Below are positions 3,076 to 18,518 of a stretch of 64,000 nucleotides of DNA, in pieces (the stretch's first letter is position 1; every line of letters begins with the position of its first letter). Made by a program: the position numbers and the translations under genes. Source of the DNA: a virus; the IMG/VR virus record IMGVR_UViG_3300023175_000028, positions 3,473 to 67,472 of that record. One strand, 5' to 3'. Under the pieces are notes generated by a model. It saw only the letters and a program-made list of their open reading frames with translations. It did not search any database and had not been told where the DNA came from.

Positions 3076-4236
3076 TTAGCTGAATGAAACGTTACCGTTA
3101 TCAATTCCAACAAGACCTAAGTAGTCAGCCGCGTTACCAAGTGAAGACGCAGTGTTTGACAACTCAACATAACCATAACGTGTCATAAATGATACGACTG
3201 GCTCGAATGATGATGGGTCAAGTACTGTTCCTGAGCTCATTAGCGGAATGTATGGGCAATAGAACGCTGCCGCATCTGATTCGCTTGAACCTTTGTAACC
3301 GATCAATACTGGTGCATTGTCTGCTGAGTAAGTATTAACGTATACTTTCATTGCGTTGTTTAAAGTACCAACCATCTTAGTGTTAGTAGGTGCTTCAAAT
3401 GTACCTTCAGTTGTACGAGCGAACGCTGAAGTAGTTGCTGACTGAAGAATTGTTAGCGCGAATGGCGAAACAACTGCCCAGTTACCAGCACCACGTCTTG
3501 TACGCTGTGCAATTAAGTTACTTACGCGGTTGATTTGAACTGCCAATGCGGCATGCTCGTCACCAACGAAAGTAGCTGTACCACTTACAGCCGCTTGGTC
3601 GTAAGTTTCAGCCGCTGTACCAGCAAGTGTTTGCAATGAAGCAAGTACTTCCTGATCAATTTCAGCAGTAATTTCTTGAGCAAGAGCAGCCATGATTTCT
3701 GCTTCAACATCAATACCGTGCATTGACTGAGCATCTTGTGCCGCTTCAAATGTCCAACGAGCACTCAACTTACGAGTTTTCGCTTCGACAGTTTGTTTCA
3801 AGATTTGAATTGACATTCTGTTACCAGCTTGTCCTTCAAGTGATGCAGTTGCATCTGCTTTACCGCTTGCGTTACCTGAATACGCTTCAGCAATTTTGAA
3901 TGGGCTTAGAGCCTCTTCACCTGCTGTAGCACCATTTGCTGTGTCGCTGTAACGAACACGTAGCGTATGGATCTGGCCCACAGGACCAGTCATTGGCTGT
4001 ACGCCTACCAACTCGTTAGCAATAACTGTTGGCATTACACGTCTGATCACTGGAAGGATCACACGATTTAGTGTTGCAACATTACCGGCAGAAGTAGCAC
4101 CTGCGGTTGCACTCTCTGACAAATACTTGCGTGTATTTTCAAGAGTTGTTTCCATTACCGCTTTTTTGTTACCTTGTAGGCCTTCAACAAGTGCTTGCTT
4201 AGTGTCCTGCCAGCGGCTTTCTAATAGTTCTGACAT
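3076..4236 (-). CDS. gp23: Major capsid protein, T4 gp23-like
   Basis: GVQPMTGPVGQI, KTRKLSARWTFEAAQD, EITAEIDQE, FYCPYIPL and MTRYG are gp23-family motifs. Confidence 0.96.
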   Translation of the reverse strand: MSELLESRWQDTKQALVEGLQGNKKAVMETTLENTRKYLSESATAGATSAGNVATLNRVILPVIRRVMPTVIANELVGVQPMTGPVGQIHTLRVRYSDTANGATAGEEALSPFKIAEAYSGNASGKADATASLEGQAGNRMSIQILKQTVEAKTRKLSARWTFEAAQDAQSMHGIDVEAEIMAALAQEITAEIDQEVLASLQTLAGTAAETYDQAAVSGTATFVGDEHAALAVQINRVSNLIAQRTRRGAGNWAVVSPFALTILQSATTSAFARTTEGTFEAPTNTKMVGTLNNAMKVYVNTYSADNAPVLIGYKGSSESDAAAFYCPYIPLMSSGTVLDPSSFEPVVSFMTRYGYVELSNTASSLGNAADYLGLVGIDNGNVSFS

Positions 4237-12488: not shown

Positions 12489-13319
12489 ATGTCAGATAAT
12501 CCATTACAGAAATATTTTAGACAACCTAAAATATATCTAAGTTTGCCTACTGGTGGTAAATTTTACCCGCCTGGGCTTATTAAAGGTGATCCATCTAATC
12601 TTCCAGTTTTTGGAATGACGGCTATGGACGAAATTGTTTTTAAAACTCCTGATGCTCTATTCAGTGGTGAAGCTACAGTTCAAGTAATTAAAAGTTGTAT
12701 TCCGGCTATTGAGCAACCTTGGTTGATGCCGCAGTTAGATGTTGATGCTTGCTTAATTGCTATAAGAATTGCAACTTATGGGCAGACATTAGAAACAGCA
12801 TTTACTTGTAAAGAATGCGGTGAAGATAATAAATTTGACCTTGATCTTTCTAAAACATTAGATTATTTTACTGATCTTAAATACGATGATAGTCTTATTG
12901 TTGGTCCTTTAATGGTAAAACTTAAACCATTAAACTATAGAGAAGTTACAGAATTAAATATGGACATATACAATTTACGTAAACAACTGTATAATTCTAC
13001 GTCAACAAGCAATGATGATAAAGAATCCAGTAAAAAATTAAACGAAGTATACAAAAAAATTGCAGAATATACAGCATCTGGATATAAAAAATCTATTCAA
13101 TCGGTTGAAACTGACGAAACGCAAGTTAACGATCCTACACAAATTGAAGAATGGCTTAAAGAAAGCGACAAAGAGTTTTTTGATAAAATTAAAGAACACT
13201 TAGAAAAACTTTCTAAGAAATGGACAATACAACCACAAACGTGTAATTGTGTAGAGTGTGAAGCTGAAAATACTGTTGCAGTAGGAATGGATAACTCAAA
13301 TTTTTTCGTGAAAGTTTAA
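12489..13319 (+). CDS. gp26: Baseplate hub assembly protein, gp26-like (probable tape-measure chaperone)
   Basis: YLSLPTGG, MTAMDE, DACLIAIRIATYG and two CxxC motifs (CKEC, CVEC). Confidence 0.75.
   Translation: MSDNPLQKYFRQPKIYLSLPTGGKFYPPGLIKGDPSNLPVFGMTAMDEIVFKTPDALFSGEATVQVIKSCIPAIEQPWLMPQLDVDACLIAIRIATYGQTLETAFTCKECGEDNKFDLDLSKTLDYFTDLKYDDSLIVGPLMVKLKPLNYREVTELNMDIYNLRKQLYNSTSTSNDDKESSKKLNEVYKKIAEYTASGYKKSIQSVETDETQVNDPTQIEEWLKESDKEFFDKIKEHLEKLSKKWTIQPQTCNCVECEAENTVAVGMDNSNFFVKV
13298..13307 (+). other. Candidate programmed -1 frameshift site
   Basis: A AAT TTT TTC gives two overlapping, in-phase X XXY YYZ heptamers; the -1 frame is open into ORF 13343..13540. Confidence 0.7.
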
Positions 13320-13342
13320 TTCCACTCTCGGAGTCTGACATA

Positions 13343-13540
13343 ATGGCTCAAGTTGAAAAACTTGAAGGTCAAACCAAACAAATCAAAGACGAGTGTTATA
13401 GAATAGCATGGCATATGCGTGGAGGAGTATCAGCTCATGAGCTCCTGTGGCGTTATTCGCAAGATGATAGAGAAATTTTAAATAAAATTATTATGGAACA
13501 TATAGAGACAACTAATAAAACTGGAATGCCTCTAATTTAA
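13343..13540 (+). CDS. Small hub/tail assembly protein (gp51-like position), probable frameshift extension of the gp26-like protein
   Basis: 65-aa ORF in the -1 frame of the upstream gene, open from the slippery site. Confidence 0.65.
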   Translation: MAQVEKLEGQTKQIKDECYRIAWHMRGGVSAHELLWRYSQDDREILNKIIMEHIETTNKTGMPLI

Positions 13541-14550
13541 AGATCTATTTTGTCAAGATCAACTTTACCAGAACTATCAAGATTTGGACCGTCATCAACA
13601 TCAGTATTATTTCCAGAACTACTACTTGTAGAACTATCACCTGCAGAGTTTGAATTTCTATCTCTCATATTTGGATCTCGAGCCATTCTCTGAAGAATTT
13701 CTTGTTTAGTTGGTGCAGAATCAATATCTTCAGGTCTGTCACTTGCTTTATTTGTTCCAAATATTGCATCTTCTAAAGTTTCAAGCTCCCAAGTTATAAC
13801 TTTTTCAAACAGTTGAGGACCATATTCTTGAATTGCCCAACCAGCAACAAAAATTGCGCCTTCTGTTAATACAAATATTAAAATTCTTAGTAGCCAGCCA
13901 ACTCCAGGAATTAATAATAGACCATTTGACATTAGTCTAAATGCTCTTATAAACTTATAAAGTTGTCTTGCTTTTTTAGCTCTTTTAAGCTCTGCAACAA
14001 GTACTGTGGCAATTGCTGTTGCGGCAGCAATTCTCATAGGAAGTAAGACTCTATCAAATGCATCTTCAGCATACGGACTGCCTTGTGCTAACGGATGACC
14101 TGCTGGATACATCTCAGCCCAAAATTCTTGTAATGTTAACACATTGTCAGTATACACTCCCCACTGAGCTATAGCTTGACCAGTCATTAACAGGCCTTTC
14201 CAGCCGCCGCCTACGACTCTTTTTGTTAACAGTTTACTTCTTTGTAATGCTCTTTGAAATTTTGTTTTTATTTTAGGATCAGTCTTGGCTGCTTCCTTCA
14301 TAACTTCTTTTGGAGTGCCAGTAATTTTTTTACCATCACTTGTAGTGTACTGAAGTTTATTTCCTTGAACTTTTAATCTTGCATTATCAAGTTGTTTAGC
14401 AATATCTCTTGCTTTTTGTGCATTTCGTTCTGTGCCAACTACTTGACCAGACTGAGTACTAACAATATTCCAACCATTTTGACCAGCACGTACAGCTCTA
14501 AAGCCGTCATTTTCAAAGATTGTTGTTTCAAAGATTTCTGATGCAAACAT
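13537..14550 (-). CDS. Hypothetical protein with hydrophobic, possibly membrane, segments
   Basis: 337 aa; LLLIPGVGWLLRILIFVLTEGAIFVAGWAI; Ser/Asp-rich tail; CATAAATA motif at 14579-14586. Confidence 0.65.
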   Translation of the reverse strand: MFASEIFETTIFENDGFRAVRAGQNGWNIVSTQSGQVVGTERNAQKARDIAKQLDNARLKVQGNKLQYTTSDGKKITGTPKEVMKEAAKTDPKIKTKFQRALQRSKLLTKRVVGGGWKGLLMTGQAIAQWGVYTDNVLTLQEFWAEMYPAGHPLAQGSPYAEDAFDRVLLPMRIAAATAIATVLVAELKRAKKARQLYKFIRAFRLMSNGLLLIPGVGWLLRILIFVLTEGAIFVAGWAIQEYGPQLFEKVITWELETLEDAIFGTNKASDRPEDIDSAPTKQEILQRMARDPNMRDRNSNSAGDSSTSSSSGNNTDVDDGPNLDSSGKVDLDKIDL

Positions 14551-14586
14551 TTAAATTATTCCTAAATTATATACAATGTATTTATG

Positions 14587-15074
14587 TTATTCGCTACGCG
14601 AATAAAGTTTTCGCTAACGCTCAAACTAAACACTTCGTTTGTATGATATAATTTATTTATGAAGATCATTATCACGTAAGTGATAATGTTTAAGCTTCAT
14701 GTAGATTGTTTCAGTCAGACGGAACCACTTACGGTTCCATCTAATCTCAAAACTTCATGTGAGTTCGTCACAGCCGAGACTTGGAAGTAGGTATTTGTTA
14801 TACTGCTACACAATGGGCTCTGACCTTTCCCAACCTACGTCGACATATGTAACATAAAGAGTGCATAAAACGCTTTTATGCTTTCTTTATAATACATTAC
14901 CCGTTGCTTCGTTCCTGTGCATACGGTTTTTGTGTGTAATGTGCAGTTTTTCGACAGCCAACAATCAGTCTATGCCAATCAAACACCCTACTACCGGATG
15001 CCGCTCAGCATGTTACGTGTGCTCCTATACGGATGCTTTTTCCACAGCGGTATTTTTAAACTGGCCCGCTAACC
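14587..15074 (-). ncRNA. Putative large (~490-nt) structured RNA or structured DNA element behind a GIY-YIG nuclease
   Basis: Long gap in a gene-dense genome with many nested stems: 14587-14605, 14667-14688, 14715-14744, 14787-14838, 14854-14890 and 14894-14942. Several need G-U pairs on the minus strand. Confidence 0.6.
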
Positions 15075-15524
15075 TTATGTGTTGGATTGTTTTGCCTTAA
15101 TGCTATGTTCTAATAGAGCTTGTTTTAATTTGTCTGATCCGCCAACTCTTACGTTAATAATACCGTTATAATAATCATCTGTTTCTAATACACGGCGGTC
15201 AAATTGCTCTCTTGCCTCAATGTAGGACATTTCGCCCCTGCCTTTACATAGGTATAGGATTTCTCTTGTGAAATTTTCTTCGCCTAACTTTGCTACGTCT
15301 GCGTTTAATCTATCGGACGAACCCCAATAGGTTTTCCAGTCTGACTCTTTGTAGCCTCTACGTTTATTTTTTTTGCCTTTGAGTGGTGGCTTTGTTGTTT
15401 TAAATTTGGCTAATTTTTTGCCTATGTATTTTTGCCCAGTGGTAAGATTGGTTATGAGATATACAAAGCCTTCGTATTCATCTGGTATAGTTTCTATTAC
15501 TTTGCCTTCATAAGTCCACTGCAT
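15075..15524 (-). CDS. GIY-YIG family endonuclease (Seg-like, catalytic domain only)
   Basis: GFVYLITN...KYIGKK, YWGSS, FTREIL, YIEAREQ and YYN motifs. Confidence 0.8.
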   Translation of the reverse strand: MQWTYEGKVIETIPDEYEGFVYLITNLTTGQKYIGKKLAKFKTTKPPLKGKKNKRRGYKESDWKTYWGSSDRLNADVAKLGEENFTREILYLCKGRGEMSYIEAREQFDRRVLETDDYYNGIINVRVGGSDKLKQALLEHSIKAKQSNT

Positions 15525-15532
15525 AGTGATAC

Positions 15533-15745
15533 TTATTTTTTACTTTTTTTGTTAGCCTCTTTCTTGGCATTATAATCGTTGTGTATCTCAGACATGCGCT
15601 GATGTGCAAGTTCACGAATTTTTCGCAACCAACGTCTACTGGCGGCGTGTGTTCTATGAGACCTGCGAGATTCAAATGCCTCGTTTGCCTTATAATATTC
15701 TAAATAAGCCTTAGTTAATTTGTCATGTGTATCGTCATCTATCAT
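15533..15745 (-). CDS. Hypothetical small basic helical protein
   Basis: 70-aa ORF whose start overlaps the gp46 stop. Confidence 0.7.
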   Translation of the reverse strand: MIDDDTHDKLTKAYLEYYKANEAFESRRSHRTHAASRRWLRKIRELAHQRMSEIHNDYNAKKEANKKSKK

Positions 15746-17511
15746 TCTACTACTTCTATGTCGTTTTCATAACTTGTAAACCCATTTTCTTTAACAACTT
15801 TTAAAATATGATTAACACGACCAATAAGTTCGTCTTTGTGAGAAATAAGATATACATTTTTATCTCTTTCTCGAGTCATTTTCTTAAGTACACCAAGCGA
15901 GTTTTCAACACCTGCTGTATCCATACCACTATCAATCAACTCGTCAATGAATAGCAAGTTGATATTTTGATATAGACTTTCCCAAACATCGCGGAATGCA
16001 AAACTTAAACCTAAAATAAGTCTGTTACGTTCGCCTCGTGACAAGTTATCAAAGTCTAAATCTTGACCTAATTGTGTAATTTCAACAGCTAAGTCATTTT
16101 GGAACACAACTTGATGCGGCAAACCTAATTTATCGAGATAATATGTAAGTCTGTTGTTAAGATATGCAAGATTTTGCTCAATAATTTTCTTACGAATAAA
16201 ACTATCTTTGTTCGTAAGTAGTTTTAATAAGAATTCTTGGTGATCTTTAAGATTGGTAAGCTCATTAACTGGAGTCCAATTAATTTCTTGAAGTGCTTCA
16301 TTTTTTAAATCATCAATTTGTGATTGATATGGATCTTCCTCGTCTTTTTTGTTGTTAAGTGTTTGTTTTAAGTTCTCAACATTGTTTCTATGTTCATATG
16401 CTTCTTTAGCTGTGTCATAAAATGTAACTGGTTTAACATCTAACTCGCCAATATTATCAAGTCCTTTTAACACTTCTTCTAATTTACCGTTAATGTCGGC
16501 TTGATAAGCCATTGCTTCTTCTAATTCTTTGGCCTTTTCTAATAGAATTTCTTGCTTTTTATCTTCATGTAACGGTTGATTACATGCATAACACATTGCA
16601 TTATCGAGCTCTAAAACATCTTTTTCTACCTTGGTTACACGTTTATCGGCTTGTATAAGTGCAGAGTCTAAAGTACTTTTTTCTTTGTTTAGTGCAGTCT
16701 TTGCCTTGTCTAATTCAGACCAATTTTGTAATTTTTCATGTAATTCGAGCTCTTGATCAATGTCTAAATGCTCTAATTCGTCAACTGCTTGCTGTAATTT
16801 GCTTAGATCTTGCTGTTTTTTAGTATTCCAAGCACTTTGTTTGGTTTTTAAACTTTTAATTGTATCTTCAATATGTGAATTAGCATTTTGTACTGCTTCA
16901 ATCTTAACAGTTTCTTCTGTAATTTGATCTTTAGTCTGACGAACTTGATCTTTTAATGATTCTGCCTTTTCAGATAAGATAGTAATACCAAGCAACTGCT
17001 CAATAATAGCACGTTGATCATTTTGACGCATTGATAAGAACGGTTCTGAGTATGTATTAAGTGCAACGATGTGTTTAAACATATCGTGCGACATACCTAA
17101 CAAGTCATTTAAGTATTCTTGCGTTTTGCGACTATCGCCTTGCGATTCGTCTTCTACTTGTTCTTCGTTATTGATATAAAATTTAAAGAAAGTAGGAGAT
17201 CTGCCTCTTTCAATCCGATATTCACTACCGTCTTTTTCAAAATCAAGCGAAACAACCATACCTTTAGAATTTGTCTTGTTGATAAGATTGTTTCGCTTGA
17301 TGTTTGTTAGTGCTTGGCCGTACAAGGCGTAGGATAATGCGTTAATTATCGTAGTTTTACCTGTACCGTTTCGTGAGCCTGAGTCGTCACCTCCTTGATC
17401 GAGATTTTCACCAAGCACTAAGGTCAGTTTTTCTTTGTTAAAGTCTACAGCCTGGGTTTGATTGCCCACACTCATAAAGTTTTTTACTGTTAAATCTTTA
17501 ATTTTAATCAT
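15742..17511 (-). CDS. gp46: Recombination endonuclease ATPase subunit (gp46, Rad50/SbcC-like)
   Basis: Walker A NGTGKTT, coiled coil with CYAC zinc hook, LSRGE signature, Walker B LLFIDE, ISH loop. Confidence 0.95.
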   Translation of the reverse strand: MIKIKDLTVKNFMSVGNQTQAVDFNKEKLTLVLGENLDQGGDDSGSRNGTGKTTIINALSYALYGQALTNIKRNNLINKTNSKGMVVSLDFEKDGSEYRIERGRSPTFFKFYINNEEQVEDESQGDSRKTQEYLNDLLGMSHDMFKHIVALNTYSEPFLSMRQNDQRAIIEQLLGITILSEKAESLKDQVRQTKDQITEETVKIEAVQNANSHIEDTIKSLKTKQSAWNTKKQQDLSKLQQAVDELEHLDIDQELELHEKLQNWSELDKAKTALNKEKSTLDSALIQADKRVTKVEKDVLELDNAMCYACNQPLHEDKKQEILLEKAKELEEAMAYQADINGKLEEVLKGLDNIGELDVKPVTFYDTAKEAYEHRNNVENLKQTLNNKKDEEDPYQSQIDDLKNEALQEINWTPVNELTNLKDHQEFLLKLLTNKDSFIRKKIIEQNLAYLNNRLTYYLDKLGLPHQVVFQNDLAVEITQLGQDLDFDNLSRGERNRLILGLSFAFRDVWESLYQNINLLFIDELIDSGMDTAGVENSLGVLKKMTRERDKNVYLISHKDELIGRVNHILKVVKENGFTSYENDIEVVE

Positions 17512-18518
17512 AATTCGTTATAAATGTCCAATAGCATTTTTTTATTGAAGTTGTCGCTGTCGATTGCGGCAATTTCTTTGGATACAATTTCATCTACACT
17601 TTCAAACTGTGTAATATCTAAGTCTGTAGAAATTTCTTCAATTTGTTTTTGCGGAATTAGTGTAATTTCACGACAGTTATGCTTACTAATGTATGTTTCT
17701 TTAATAAACTGTGCTTCTTCGTAACTAATAGGTAAGTCAAGTGTAACTCGAAGGTACATTTTAGGTTTAATAATGTCACTTTCTGGATCAAGTAACTTGC
17801 TTAGTGTAGTTGTACGATACTTAGGACAGTTCCACCAGTTGATATACTCGGGTTCTTTACCATTTTCTTTGTCAAGGATCATCATTCCGCGTTCGTCATC
17901 CCATGCATCTGCATAGTTGTGTGGAAATGCGTTACCAATGTAATGAATTTTACCTTGCACCTGTCGCTTGTGGAAGTGACCACTAAACACATACTCTTGA
18001 TTTTTAAAATGTTGCGGGCGTAGATCACCGTGGTCTGGCATTTGCACCATAGCATTCATATAAAAACTTGGAAGTTCAAAATGACCAAACATATATTTGG
18101 CTTTAATGTTTTCAATTTTCTTCCATTCGTCGCCTACAAGCCACGGAACAAGTGCTACATCATCTTCTTCGTAGATTTCATCTACAAAAGTAACACCTTC
18201 GATGTGTTTGCCAAATATAGTTGAACTTACATCACGTTTGTCTTTGTAGTACAAATCGTGATTGCCTACAAACATATAAAAATTGTCAAATGCTTTGCCT
18301 AACTTTTCTAAACTACGAATAGTAGCATCCATAGTTGTTAGGTTAAGCGAATTACGATTGTGATGCCAGTCACCGCAAAAGATAGCGGTCTCGCAATCGT
18401 TTGCTTTTGCTTGTTCAATAAACCAATCTATAAATTCTTCGCAATCGTCGTTGTGTGCTCTACTGTTACCTTTTAAACCAAAATGTATATCTGTAAAGAC
18501 AGCCGCTTTTTTAAACAA
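17508..18518 (-). CDS. gp47: Recombination endonuclease nuclease subunit (gp47, Mre11/SbcD-like)
   Basis: Metallophosphoesterase motifs DIHFG, GD, GNHD, GHFE and SGHFH; adjacent to gp46. Confidence 0.95.
   Translation of the reverse strand: MFKKAAVFTDIHFGLKGNSRAHNDDCEEFIDWFIEQAKANDCETAIFCGDWHHNRNSLNLTTMDATIRSLEKLGKAFDNFYMFVGNHDLYYKDKRDVSSTIFGKHIEGVTFVDEIYEEDDVALVPWLVGDEWKKIENIKAKYMFGHFELPSFYMNAMVQMPDHGDLRPQHFKNQEYVFSGHFHKRQVQGKIHYIGNAFPHNYADAWDDERGMMILDKENGKEPEYINWWNCPKYRTTTLSKLLDPESDIIKPKMYLRVTLDLPISYEEAQFIKETYISKHNCREITLIPQKQIEEISTDLDITQFESVDEIVSKEIAAIDSDNFNKKMLLDIYNEL

Follow-up and report, generated by a model that had tools for sequence, protein, structure and literature searches.

The locus examined here raises a simple question: what occupies the space behind the gene for a small GIY-YIG nuclease in a phage known from metagenomes? 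The stretch analysed, hereafter the window, is 64,000 nucleotides (nt) long and covers positions 3,473 to 67,472 of IMG/VR record IMGVR_UViG_3300023175_000028. On its minus strand lie gp47 (17508-18518), gp46 (15742-17511), a short open reading frame (ORF) that we call orf70 (15533-15745) and the nuclease gene (15075-15524). The nuclease ORF is followed by 524 nt without a conserved ORF and then by an ORF of 337 amino acids (13537-14550, minus strand). A first-pass annotation of the window, made from the sequence alone, had proposed that the non-coding part is one half of a nuclease-RNA complex or a new large RNA in the recombination operon, with an origin or packaging site as the alternative. 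We conclude, with a probability of about 0.55, that it is a new family of large structured non-coding RNA, made as a 3′ extension of the nuclease operon. Its bearers are marine T4-like phages of an abundant clade that is so far uncultured, and hundreds of them carry the nuclease-RNA locus.

The whole structured RNA, as delimited by conservation blocks, fold and covariation, is about 510 nt long (14588-15097, minus strand) and reaches from a tail inside the nuclease ORF to a terminal hairpin. Encoded on the same strand as the gp47-gp46-orf70-GIY operon and placed immediately after it, the RNA contains at least 12 helices and a pseudoknot that uses the last nuclease codons, and ends at its 3′ side in a stable hairpin, ahead of a late-promoter-like motif belonging to the next gene. 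The element is present once in the 67,472-bp IMG/VR phage fragment that includes the window, and its G+C content is 0.41-0.46, against about 0.33 in the surroundings. Searching IMG/VR with the nuclease protein, we found at least 600 stretches that encode the nuclease and retained the 80 best. In 78 of these loci the nuclease stop codon is followed by the element, and the other two have no more than 24 nt downstream. Forty-eight distinct elements found through the nuclease protein were aligned; the alignment consists of long invariant blocks interrupted by hairpins that vary in sequence and in length, and one block of 36 nt, AUGUCGACGUAGGUUGGGAAAGGUCAGAGCCCAUUG (14811-14846, minus strand), is invariant or nearly so in 48 of the 48 sequences. 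Since frameshifting 1-nt indels fall inside the first 70 nt of the alignment and reading frames are not kept, the element holds no conserved ORF. Its core is more conserved than the adjacent recombination proteins (dS, the synonymous divergence, of the neighbouring genes 1.2-1.7).

The minus strand of the element folds with a predicted energy of −150.7 kcal/mol (z = −5.64), a value that none of 100 shuffled sequences equalled, against z = −3.18 for the plus strand. We scored 12 helices, comprising 69 pairs, on the 48-sequence alignment, using as controls partners slid along the alignment and 500 shuffles. A pair can form in 95.5% of the cells, compared with 34-41% when the partners are slid. 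Changes on both sides of a pair were observed at 22 pairs and in 168 cells; the shuffles gave 14.9 ± 1.8 pairs and 56.7 ± 6 cells, with none of the 500 reaching the observed values, and the slid controls gave 6-11 pairs and 14-30 cells. On the minus strand, G-U is the commonest pair at 7 of the 69 positions tested. The gene strand is therefore the folded strand, which bears out, together with the two z-scores, the earlier remark that G-U pairs favour a minus-strand RNA.

These observations bear directly on the possibility that the element acts as DNA, namely as a replication origin, a packaging signal or a recombination hotspot at the border of the replication and structural modules. The element does lie at a module border beside a hypervariable gene slot, and many contigs break inside it; PMC7029224 places a pelagimyophage hypervariable region between the replication and structural modules. 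The compensating changes, however, preserve pairing within a strand, the G-U pairs would be A-C mismatches on the opposite strand, a long-range pseudoknot (PK1, below) covaries, and neither iterons nor tandem repeats were noticed in the 48-element alignment. Because the constraint acts on base pairing within one strand, an origin or packaging site is unlikely, and we regard a DNA element of any of these kinds as very remote.

Every stem listed in the first-pass annotation is present where it had been placed: AGCGG/CCGCU (our helix H1), GGCAUCC/GGGUGUU (H3a), ACAUUAC/GUAAUGU around CCGU/ACGG (H5), the long hairpin AUAAAGA...GCAUAAAA (H6), GUAGGU/ACCUAC around UGGG/CCCA, UUAGAUGGAACC/GGUUCCGUCUGA (H8) and CAUUAUCAC/GUGAUAAUG (H10), as is ACAUGAAG, which occurs twice. 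From the 5′ end, with all coordinates on the minus strand, H1 (15046-15070) is paired in 100% of the sequences and invariant save for an exchange of G-U and A-U at one pair. H2 (GUG/CAC, 15017-15045), whose middle pair is U-A in 41 sequences and A-U in 7, encloses the variable hairpin H2a, which was found as a hairpin in 28 distinct sequences. H3 (AUGCUGA/UUGGCAU, 14972-15011) has three pairs changed on both sides (for example, U-A in 33 and C-G in 15, A-U in 29 and G-C in 19) and encloses H3a, a module that occurs in a short and a long form. Sixteen of the 80 IMG/VR contigs (L001-L080) end 75-150 nt past the nuclease stop codon, inside H3a; these ends likely reflect assembly breaks from co-occurring short and long variants. 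H4 (14953-14970), drawn from the covariation alignments, exposes the loop UGUUGG (14958-14963), the 3′ strand of PK1. In H5 (14894-14942), which carries the conserved loop AGGAACGAAGC, two pairs are U-A in 28 and C-G in 18 sequences and C-G in 37 and G-C in 10. H6 (14847-14893) is a hairpin of variable length: in relatives it can be as small as a GAAA loop on a 4-bp stem or extend to about 110 nt, and it is replaced by 9 nt in a variant found in three metatranscriptome assemblies.

The core helices GUAGGU/ACCUAC and UGGG/CCCA (14787-14838) show no variation on both sides. Here GUAGGUUG is fully pairable either with ACCUAC or with CAAUCUAC (14701-14708), with only one-sided changes for either, and variation in this part is censored because the core sample was found in part with an exact 28-mer. 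H7 (GUCUC/GAGAU, 14744-14780; variants GUCUU/AAGAU, GUCUA/UAGAC and AUCU/AGAU) encloses a small covarying helix that presents the first of two repeats, R1. H8 (GAUGGAACC/GGUUCCGUC, 14718-14741) is 99.8% paired in form A, the form to which the sister forms B and C are compared below. The adjoining UGACU (14713-14717) is 100% pairable with GGUCA (14821-14825), with a one-sided change only (G-U in 41 and G-C in 7 sequences), and these strands constitute a candidate second pseudoknot, PK2. All nine pairs of H10 (14667-14688) have changed on both sides, and many distinct hairpins are found at this place. H11 (AGUUU-GA-GC/GC-GA-AAACU, 14606-14627) contains tandem G-A pairs, has one pair that is C-G in 39 and U-A in 8 sequences, and is kept in forms A and B. 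The terminal hairpin H12 (14588-14604), which the promoter and terminator scan also picked up, was recovered in 75 distinct sequences, 96% of them with z < −1.5. H2a, H6, H10 and H12 are kept as hairpins across 28 to 75 distinct sequences.

The 5′ boundary of the RNA is set by PK1. The sequence CCAACA (15080-15085, minus strand), which lies in the last nuclease codons and ends 2 nt ahead of the stop codon, pairs with UGUUGG in the hairpin loop of H4 (14958-14963), 115 nt downstream. In 94 distinct sequences the two strands occur as CCAACA/UGUUGG (72), CUAACA/UGUUAG (11), ACAGCA/UGCUGU (7) and GCAACA/UGUUGC (3); locus L096 has the CCAACA tail of the main class, and its loop is seen in part. We tested PK1 on an alignment of 40 sequences: the window itself, 19 of the 74 remaining members of the CCAACA class and the 20 distinct sequences that fall outside it. 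Each of the six pairs is kept in 40 of 40 sequences; three of them have changed on both sides, in 9, 11 and 6 sequences, respectively. The third positions of nuclease codons 143-148 are 0.84-1.00 conserved, against 0.64 across the gene. The RNA therefore starts near 15097, about 21 nt inside the ORF, in a tail, AGGCAAAACAAUCCAACACAUAA (15075-15097, minus strand), that is also the last seven nuclease codons and the stop codon. The first-pass annotation had let the element start at the stop codon, some 21-23 nt too far downstream; a 5′ block, GGUURGCGGGC, does begin at the base right after the stop codon in 152 of 186 loci. A conserved promoter would find no space ahead of the 21-nt tail.

In six loci (L089, L093, L096, L105, L127 and L135) an insert of 251-299 nt, encoding an ORF of 87-104 amino acids, separates the nuclease from the RNA. 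Each of them retains, ahead of the RNA, a remnant of the ORF end, AGGCAAA.CAAUCCAACACAUAA, in which the tail is kept as non-coding sequence. Given these six loci and a downstream ORF that differs among lineages, the element is independent of its flanks. The inserted ORFs overlap the end of the nuclease gene; those of L089, L093 and L127 have in common the motif GIWPTGKH..K.S.L.E.YL.WAG, and those of L093 and L096 (two of four tested) gave sub-threshold matches to PF12843 (QSregVF_b).

Since PK1 lies at the end of the ORF, a terminating ribosome must open the pseudoknot, so that completion of nuclease translation and formation of the 5′ pseudoknot would be mutually exclusive. We envisage that the RNA is produced by read-through of the nuclease mRNA, as an RNA of the 3′ untranslated region (UTR) type that may then be cut out. 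Another account is that in which the element is a cis-acting 3′ UTR that stabilises the gp47-gp46-orf70-GIY transcript or couples nuclease output to translation termination through the pseudoknot. The account fits an element that closes the operon on its 3′ side, a stop codon embedded in structure, the terminal hairpins H11 and H12, and the promoter and terminator scan of the stretch, whose result was at chance level and which found no separate promoter for the RNA. We consider it distinctly unlikely, as known 3′ stabilisers need far less than 510 nt, invariant loops and a pair of identical recognition elements, the six insert loci keep the tail although it is no longer translated, and conservation is higher in the RNA core than in the proteins that it would regulate.

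The two putative recognition elements are the repeats R1, ACUCACAUGAAG (14753-14764, minus strand), which lies in a hairpin loop, and R2, AUCUACAUGAAG (14695-14706, minus strand), 58 nt downstream. Both are single-stranded, 9-12 nt long, and carry identical changes across lineages: the 99 distinct cores fall into about eight classes in which R1 and R2 change in step, with three exceptions. The commonest form is CAUGAAG; the others are CAUAAUG/CAUAAUA (8), CAUGAUG (5), CGUGAAG (4-5), CAGGAA (2) and CGUAUG/UGUAUG (1). The element contains no 7-mer complement of R1 or R2; an R1×R2 duplex is weakly favoured (native −4.7 versus cross −2.9 kcal/mol, two classes being near zero); and R2 pairs just weakly with the flank behind H10. 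A third copy, UACAUGAAG in gp46 (16563-16571, minus strand), was considered as a partner and rejected, as it codes for LHED and is compatible with chance (1.2 copies expected, three found including R1 and R2). The variable guide-like segment that the first-pass annotation had suggested looking for did not appear: the variable segments H2a, H3a, H6, H10 and H12 are all self-complementary hairpins, which leaves R1 and R2 as the other varying parts. We suggest that R1 and R2 bind two copies of one partner, or two sites on it, and that the specificity for this partner may differ between phage lineages. The folded RNA would work alone or as an RNA-protein particle, be it as scaffold, decoy or ribozyme.

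Is the nuclease that partner? Its 149 amino acids match Pfam PF19835, a SegE-type domain, over residues 3-123 (E = 1.3e-35; 122.8 bits, the cut-off being 25; the profile is covered from position 1 to 123 of 123), as well as phrog_447 (E = 1.7e-39), a family whose profile is 148 amino acids long and which carries the misleading label 'NAD synthetase'; the gene is thus the compact GIY-YIG nuclease that had been predicted. Residues Y22, Y33, G35, R87, E103 and N120 are invariant in two alignments, one of five distant homologues and one of 36 clade members, and I34 only among the five distant homologues; we take these, from what is known of I-TevI, to be the catalytic residues of the GIY...YIG motifs and the downstream Arg, Glu and Asn. 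A structure model (pLDDT, the predicted local confidence, 81.3) has the I-TevI catalytic domain as its three best Foldseek matches in the PDB, all weak (E 0.14-0.52, template modelling score 0.30-0.60); a sequence search of the PDB gave nothing at E ≤ 1. No C-terminal DNA-binding domain is present, the protein having 149 residues, a domain profile that ends at residue 123, and tails that are short and variable. The Lys/Arg-rich insert and the missing DNA-binding tail, to which the first-pass annotation had drawn attention, are there, but they are traits of the whole family of about 148 residues and are also seen in homologues with no RNA alongside.

The nuclease is no recent arrival. Between the window and 49 loci its dN/dS, the ratio of non-synonymous to synonymous divergence, is 0.062 at dS 1.23, and in the same genome pairs dS is saturated for gp46 (1.62) and gp47 (1.68) as well; the gene has therefore long been resident here under constraint, and is not a selfish gene of recent spread. 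Among 67 loci found independently of the protein, nuclease conservation exceeds that of gp46 in 60 and that of gp47 in 58. A mobile homing endonuclease of the Seg type was accordingly rejected: the gene occupies the same position in all loci examined, has a dS like that of gp46 and shows no sign of recent spread. Homologues occur in 824 phage records. A protein of Methylophilales phage Melnitz is 70.6% identical to the nuclease by tblastn, and the homologues in Melnitz, Bellamy, S-SRM01 and phiN3 are 41-66% identical by alignment. In Melnitz (L081) and Bellamy (L202) the homologous gene stands after nrdB and a small ORF, and in Bellamy a tRNA cluster then follows.

Scanning with an exact 28-mer from the RNA core, we found at least 120 stretches, and the matches listed comprise 118 new loci. 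Among these, the nuclease gene is upstream of the RNA in all 98 with at least 800 nt of upstream sequence, within 450 nt in 92 and with the inserted ORF in six. The linkage persists down to a gp46 identity of just 54%, and likewise when additional genes come between gp46 and the pair of orf70 and nuclease. The order gp47-gp46-orf70-GIY-element is itself invariant across loci, whereas the next ORF varies (157-492 amino acids), and the linkage of RNA and nuclease is thus confounded with, and inseparable from, fixed synteny. Nuclease homologues at other genome positions lack the RNA. Our covariance model of the core reaches 199.8 bits on the window; applied to Melnitz, S-SRM01, Bellamy and phiN3 it found nothing genuine, giving only a 13.6-bit match, antisense within a Melnitz coding sequence. 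The homologous nucleases of these four phages (those of Melnitz and Bellamy after nrdB) have no such gap or RNA behind them, the 148-nt gap after the Melnitz homologue bears no likeness to the element, and a blastn search with the element returned no match among 50,697 phage records, a collection that may lack records close to the window. Linkage across genomes, which the first-pass annotation had made a point of, therefore holds within this locus, for 98 of 98 of the loci just described, and fails for homologues elsewhere.

Further loci sought through the downstream ORF gave eight pattern matches, none of which was confirmed. In cellular genomes a 19-mer had four matches, where about four are expected by chance; the covariance model confirmed three as real, all of them phage contigs binned in metagenome-assembled genomes (MAGs), from which no host is inferred. 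They comprise a contig of a Crocinitomicaceae MAG (L206) and two contigs of Neomarinimicrobiota MAG RS350 (L208 and L209, 335 kb and 153 kb); all three carry the full gp47-gp46-orf70-GIY-RNA locus, and the nuclease sequences of L208 and L209 are identical.

A second protein search, started from the divergent clade member L181, returned 80 loci, of which 39 match the covariance model, 10 are too short downstream and 31 have the same gp46-orf70-GIY synteny without a match. Downstream of the nuclease, these 31 have 340-420 nt that are poor in ORFs and fold strongly. Distinct downstream regions with a length of 430 nt or more numbered 57, and 45 of them have two R cores that lie 45-66 nt apart. 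In form C both repeats have G in place of A before CAUG. H8, the hairpin that stands between the repeats, is 95.8% paired when the three forms A, B and C are taken together, and six of its nine pairs have changed on both sides; H11 is common to A, B and two of five aligned form-C sequences, and H12 to A and B. The sister forms B and C thus keep the architecture of form A behind the same gene. A fourth form behind the nuclease (L257, L260, L273, L282 and L285; five distinct) shows a GC-rich hairpin with AUCUAGAUAAU after it, and our pattern found no R core there.

From such observations one might propose that the RNA and the GIY-YIG nuclease beside it work as partners, perhaps with the orf70 protein: the nuclease would bind the 3′ extension of its own mRNA as it is made, and the RNA would target, activate or restrain the enzyme, with R1 and R2 as the recognition elements. 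An upstream nuclease in 98 of the 98 listed loci, even with extra genes between gp46 and the nuclease, and diverged RNA forms B and C that still lie behind the same gene are what this proposal would lead one to expect. So are an RNA that overlaps the ORF end in the layout of the TnpB omega RNA, a catalytic-domain-only nuclease lacking a DNA-binding domain, a constraint on it stronger than on gp46 and gp47 in this clade, and R1 and R2 as the only single-stranded elements that vary between lineages. Set against them are the fixed synteny, from which the linkage cannot be separated, the 41-66% identical homologues in Melnitz, Bellamy, S-SRM01 and phiN3 that lack the RNA, the six loci that place another ORF between nuclease and RNA, and the want of a long variable single-stranded guide, 7-9 nt being too short for DNA targeting. 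Moreover, we know of no RNA-dependent GIY-YIG enzyme. On balance we think a partnership unlikely, if still a serious contender. Its most ambitious version is a ribonucleoprotein of the RNA and the catalytic-domain-only GIY-YIG protein, in which the RNA supplies the missing targeting or control and R1 and R2 read the target, in the service of the recombination and DNA-processing programme of the phage; this we offer as a long shot.

Comparison with known systems supports a separate family. Rfam gave no match on the element, either at E ≤ 1 with permissive filters over 13000-17000 or at the gathering score over the whole window with 4227 families; hence the match to a known intron or non-coding RNA family against which the first-pass annotation had wanted the element checked was not found. 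ARAGORN reported no tRNA or tmRNA gene in the window. The TnpB omega RNA overlaps the end of its nuclease ORF, and in the OMEGA and HEARO systems (IscB/TnpB), as here, a large structured RNA adjoins a compact nuclease gene with which it has the strand in common; the present RNA resembles the omega RNA in overlapping the nuclease ORF end. The nuclease here, however, is GIY-YIG and not RuvC or HNH, its family also occurs without RNA, the RNA has no Rfam HEARO match and no variable guide at its end, and no transposon context is seen, the gene being a fixed resident of one phage locus under purifying selection. What stands of the original proposal is therefore the new large RNA in the recombination operon, on the strength of conservation, covariation, strand-specific G-U pairs and the Rfam result; a complex of the HEARO/OMEGA type would be the less likely reading.

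GIY-YIG genes also reside in phage group I introns, as I-TevI does in the td intron of T4, and a GIY-YIG gene beside a large structured RNA in a T4-like phage recalls that case. Could the element be a degenerate or unusual form of a known ribozyme or intron, for instance a group I intron that formerly housed the gene? It is large and pseudoknotted enough, but the permissive Rfam search gave no intron match, no host gene is interrupted, the flanks are complete unrelated ORFs, of which the downstream one is variable, and the nuclease gene lies upstream of the RNA and not inside it. The nuclease also differs from intron-encoded GIY-YIG enzymes in lacking a DNA-binding domain and any sign of mobility. 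We find this origin barely credible. With the free-standing Seg-type and phrog_447 proteins the nuclease has in common the catalytic domain PF19835; it differs from the Seg type in consisting of that domain only, in its fixed place after gp46-orf70 with dN/dS 0.06 at saturated dS, and in being always followed by the RNA, in this locus alone.

GOLLD and ROOL are often borne by phages, and with these and OLE the present RNA has in common a length of several hundred nt with many helices and pseudoknots. It differs from all three in having no Rfam match and in being embedded at the 3′ end of an operon, where it overlaps an ORF. According to PMC12286853, GOLLD and ROOL form homo-oligomers; in the RNA described here, R1×R2 pairing is only weakly favoured. 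Small RNAs derived from 3′ UTRs offer a further parallel. CpxQ and SroC are bacterial examples, and the present RNA resembles this class in having a 5′ part in common with the end of a coding sequence, a 3′ end in common with the operon and, probably, no promoter of its own; it is 5-10 times larger, multi-domain and without a known seed-target pair. PMC10690425 (2023) presents a catalogue of more than 10,000 candidate structured RNAs from IMG/VR. A nuclease-linked RNA goes unmentioned in the searched passages of that paper and of PMC7029224, although the supplementary tables of the former may list the element; the best reading is that the RNA family was previously uncatalogued.

Several points weigh against the interpretation of the element as an independent RNA family produced from the operon. 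Its tight and exclusive position, its overlap with the ORF and the strong conservation of the nuclease fit a direct nuclease partnership as well. The shuffle control ignores relatedness and therefore overstates significance, and part of the fold is unproven because the core helices never vary on both sides. The search for partners of R1 and R2, whether complements, duplexes or flank, gave none. Finally, the four RNA runs examined are assembled contigs, silent on transcription, strand and ends. In seven RNA libraries from one habitat and year, 0.24-0.54 of the sampled words were present. A higher summed depth over 14744-15559 was rejected as a measure of expression, since conserved parts draw in contigs of relatives and the runs had been chosen with this stretch.

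Around the element, orf70 (15533-15745, minus strand), a context gene and possible partner, encodes a basic protein of 70 amino acids, rich in Arg and Lys, that is conserved between gp46 and the nuclease. It matched no Pfam or PHROG family; a weak lead from the ESM Atlas is that 10-18% of the members of its nearest clusters carry PF07432 (Hc1), and the protein could bind nucleic acid. The closest gp46 in the phage collection is at most 48.7% identical, and cultured relatives of the window phage are distant. The slot 3′ of the RNA holds a different ORF in nearly every lineage, with the motif AUAAAUA ahead of it; in the window this motif, seen in the alignment at 14579-14585 (minus strand), precedes the ORF at 13537-14550, and we presume it to be late-promoter-like from its resemblance to the T4 late-promoter consensus. 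The 337-residue product of that ORF combines a hydrophobic stretch with a Ser-rich tail; it matches no Pfam or PHROG family. The sequence TATAAATA is not enriched within the window. Elsewhere on the minus strand, about 450 nt apart, the window contains a freshwater-2 RNA (2235-2324, 70.7 bits) and a glutamine riboswitch aptamer (2773-2820, 47.5 bits).

Large, highly conserved, pseudoknotted RNAs are rare, and most of those that are understood are ribozymes or the cores of RNA-protein machines. The family described here would add to RNA biology one with a pseudoknot at the end of an ORF, a pair of single-stranded elements that change together and at least three diverged forms of one architecture, from a locus that is abundant in marine viral metagenomes. 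Should the RNA work with the nuclease, it would define a new class of RNA-dependent nucleases, and a GIY-YIG ribonucleoprotein, if true, would be the first RNA-dependent GIY-YIG nuclease. For phage biology, the locus hints that the gp46/gp47 recombination operon carries an RNA component.

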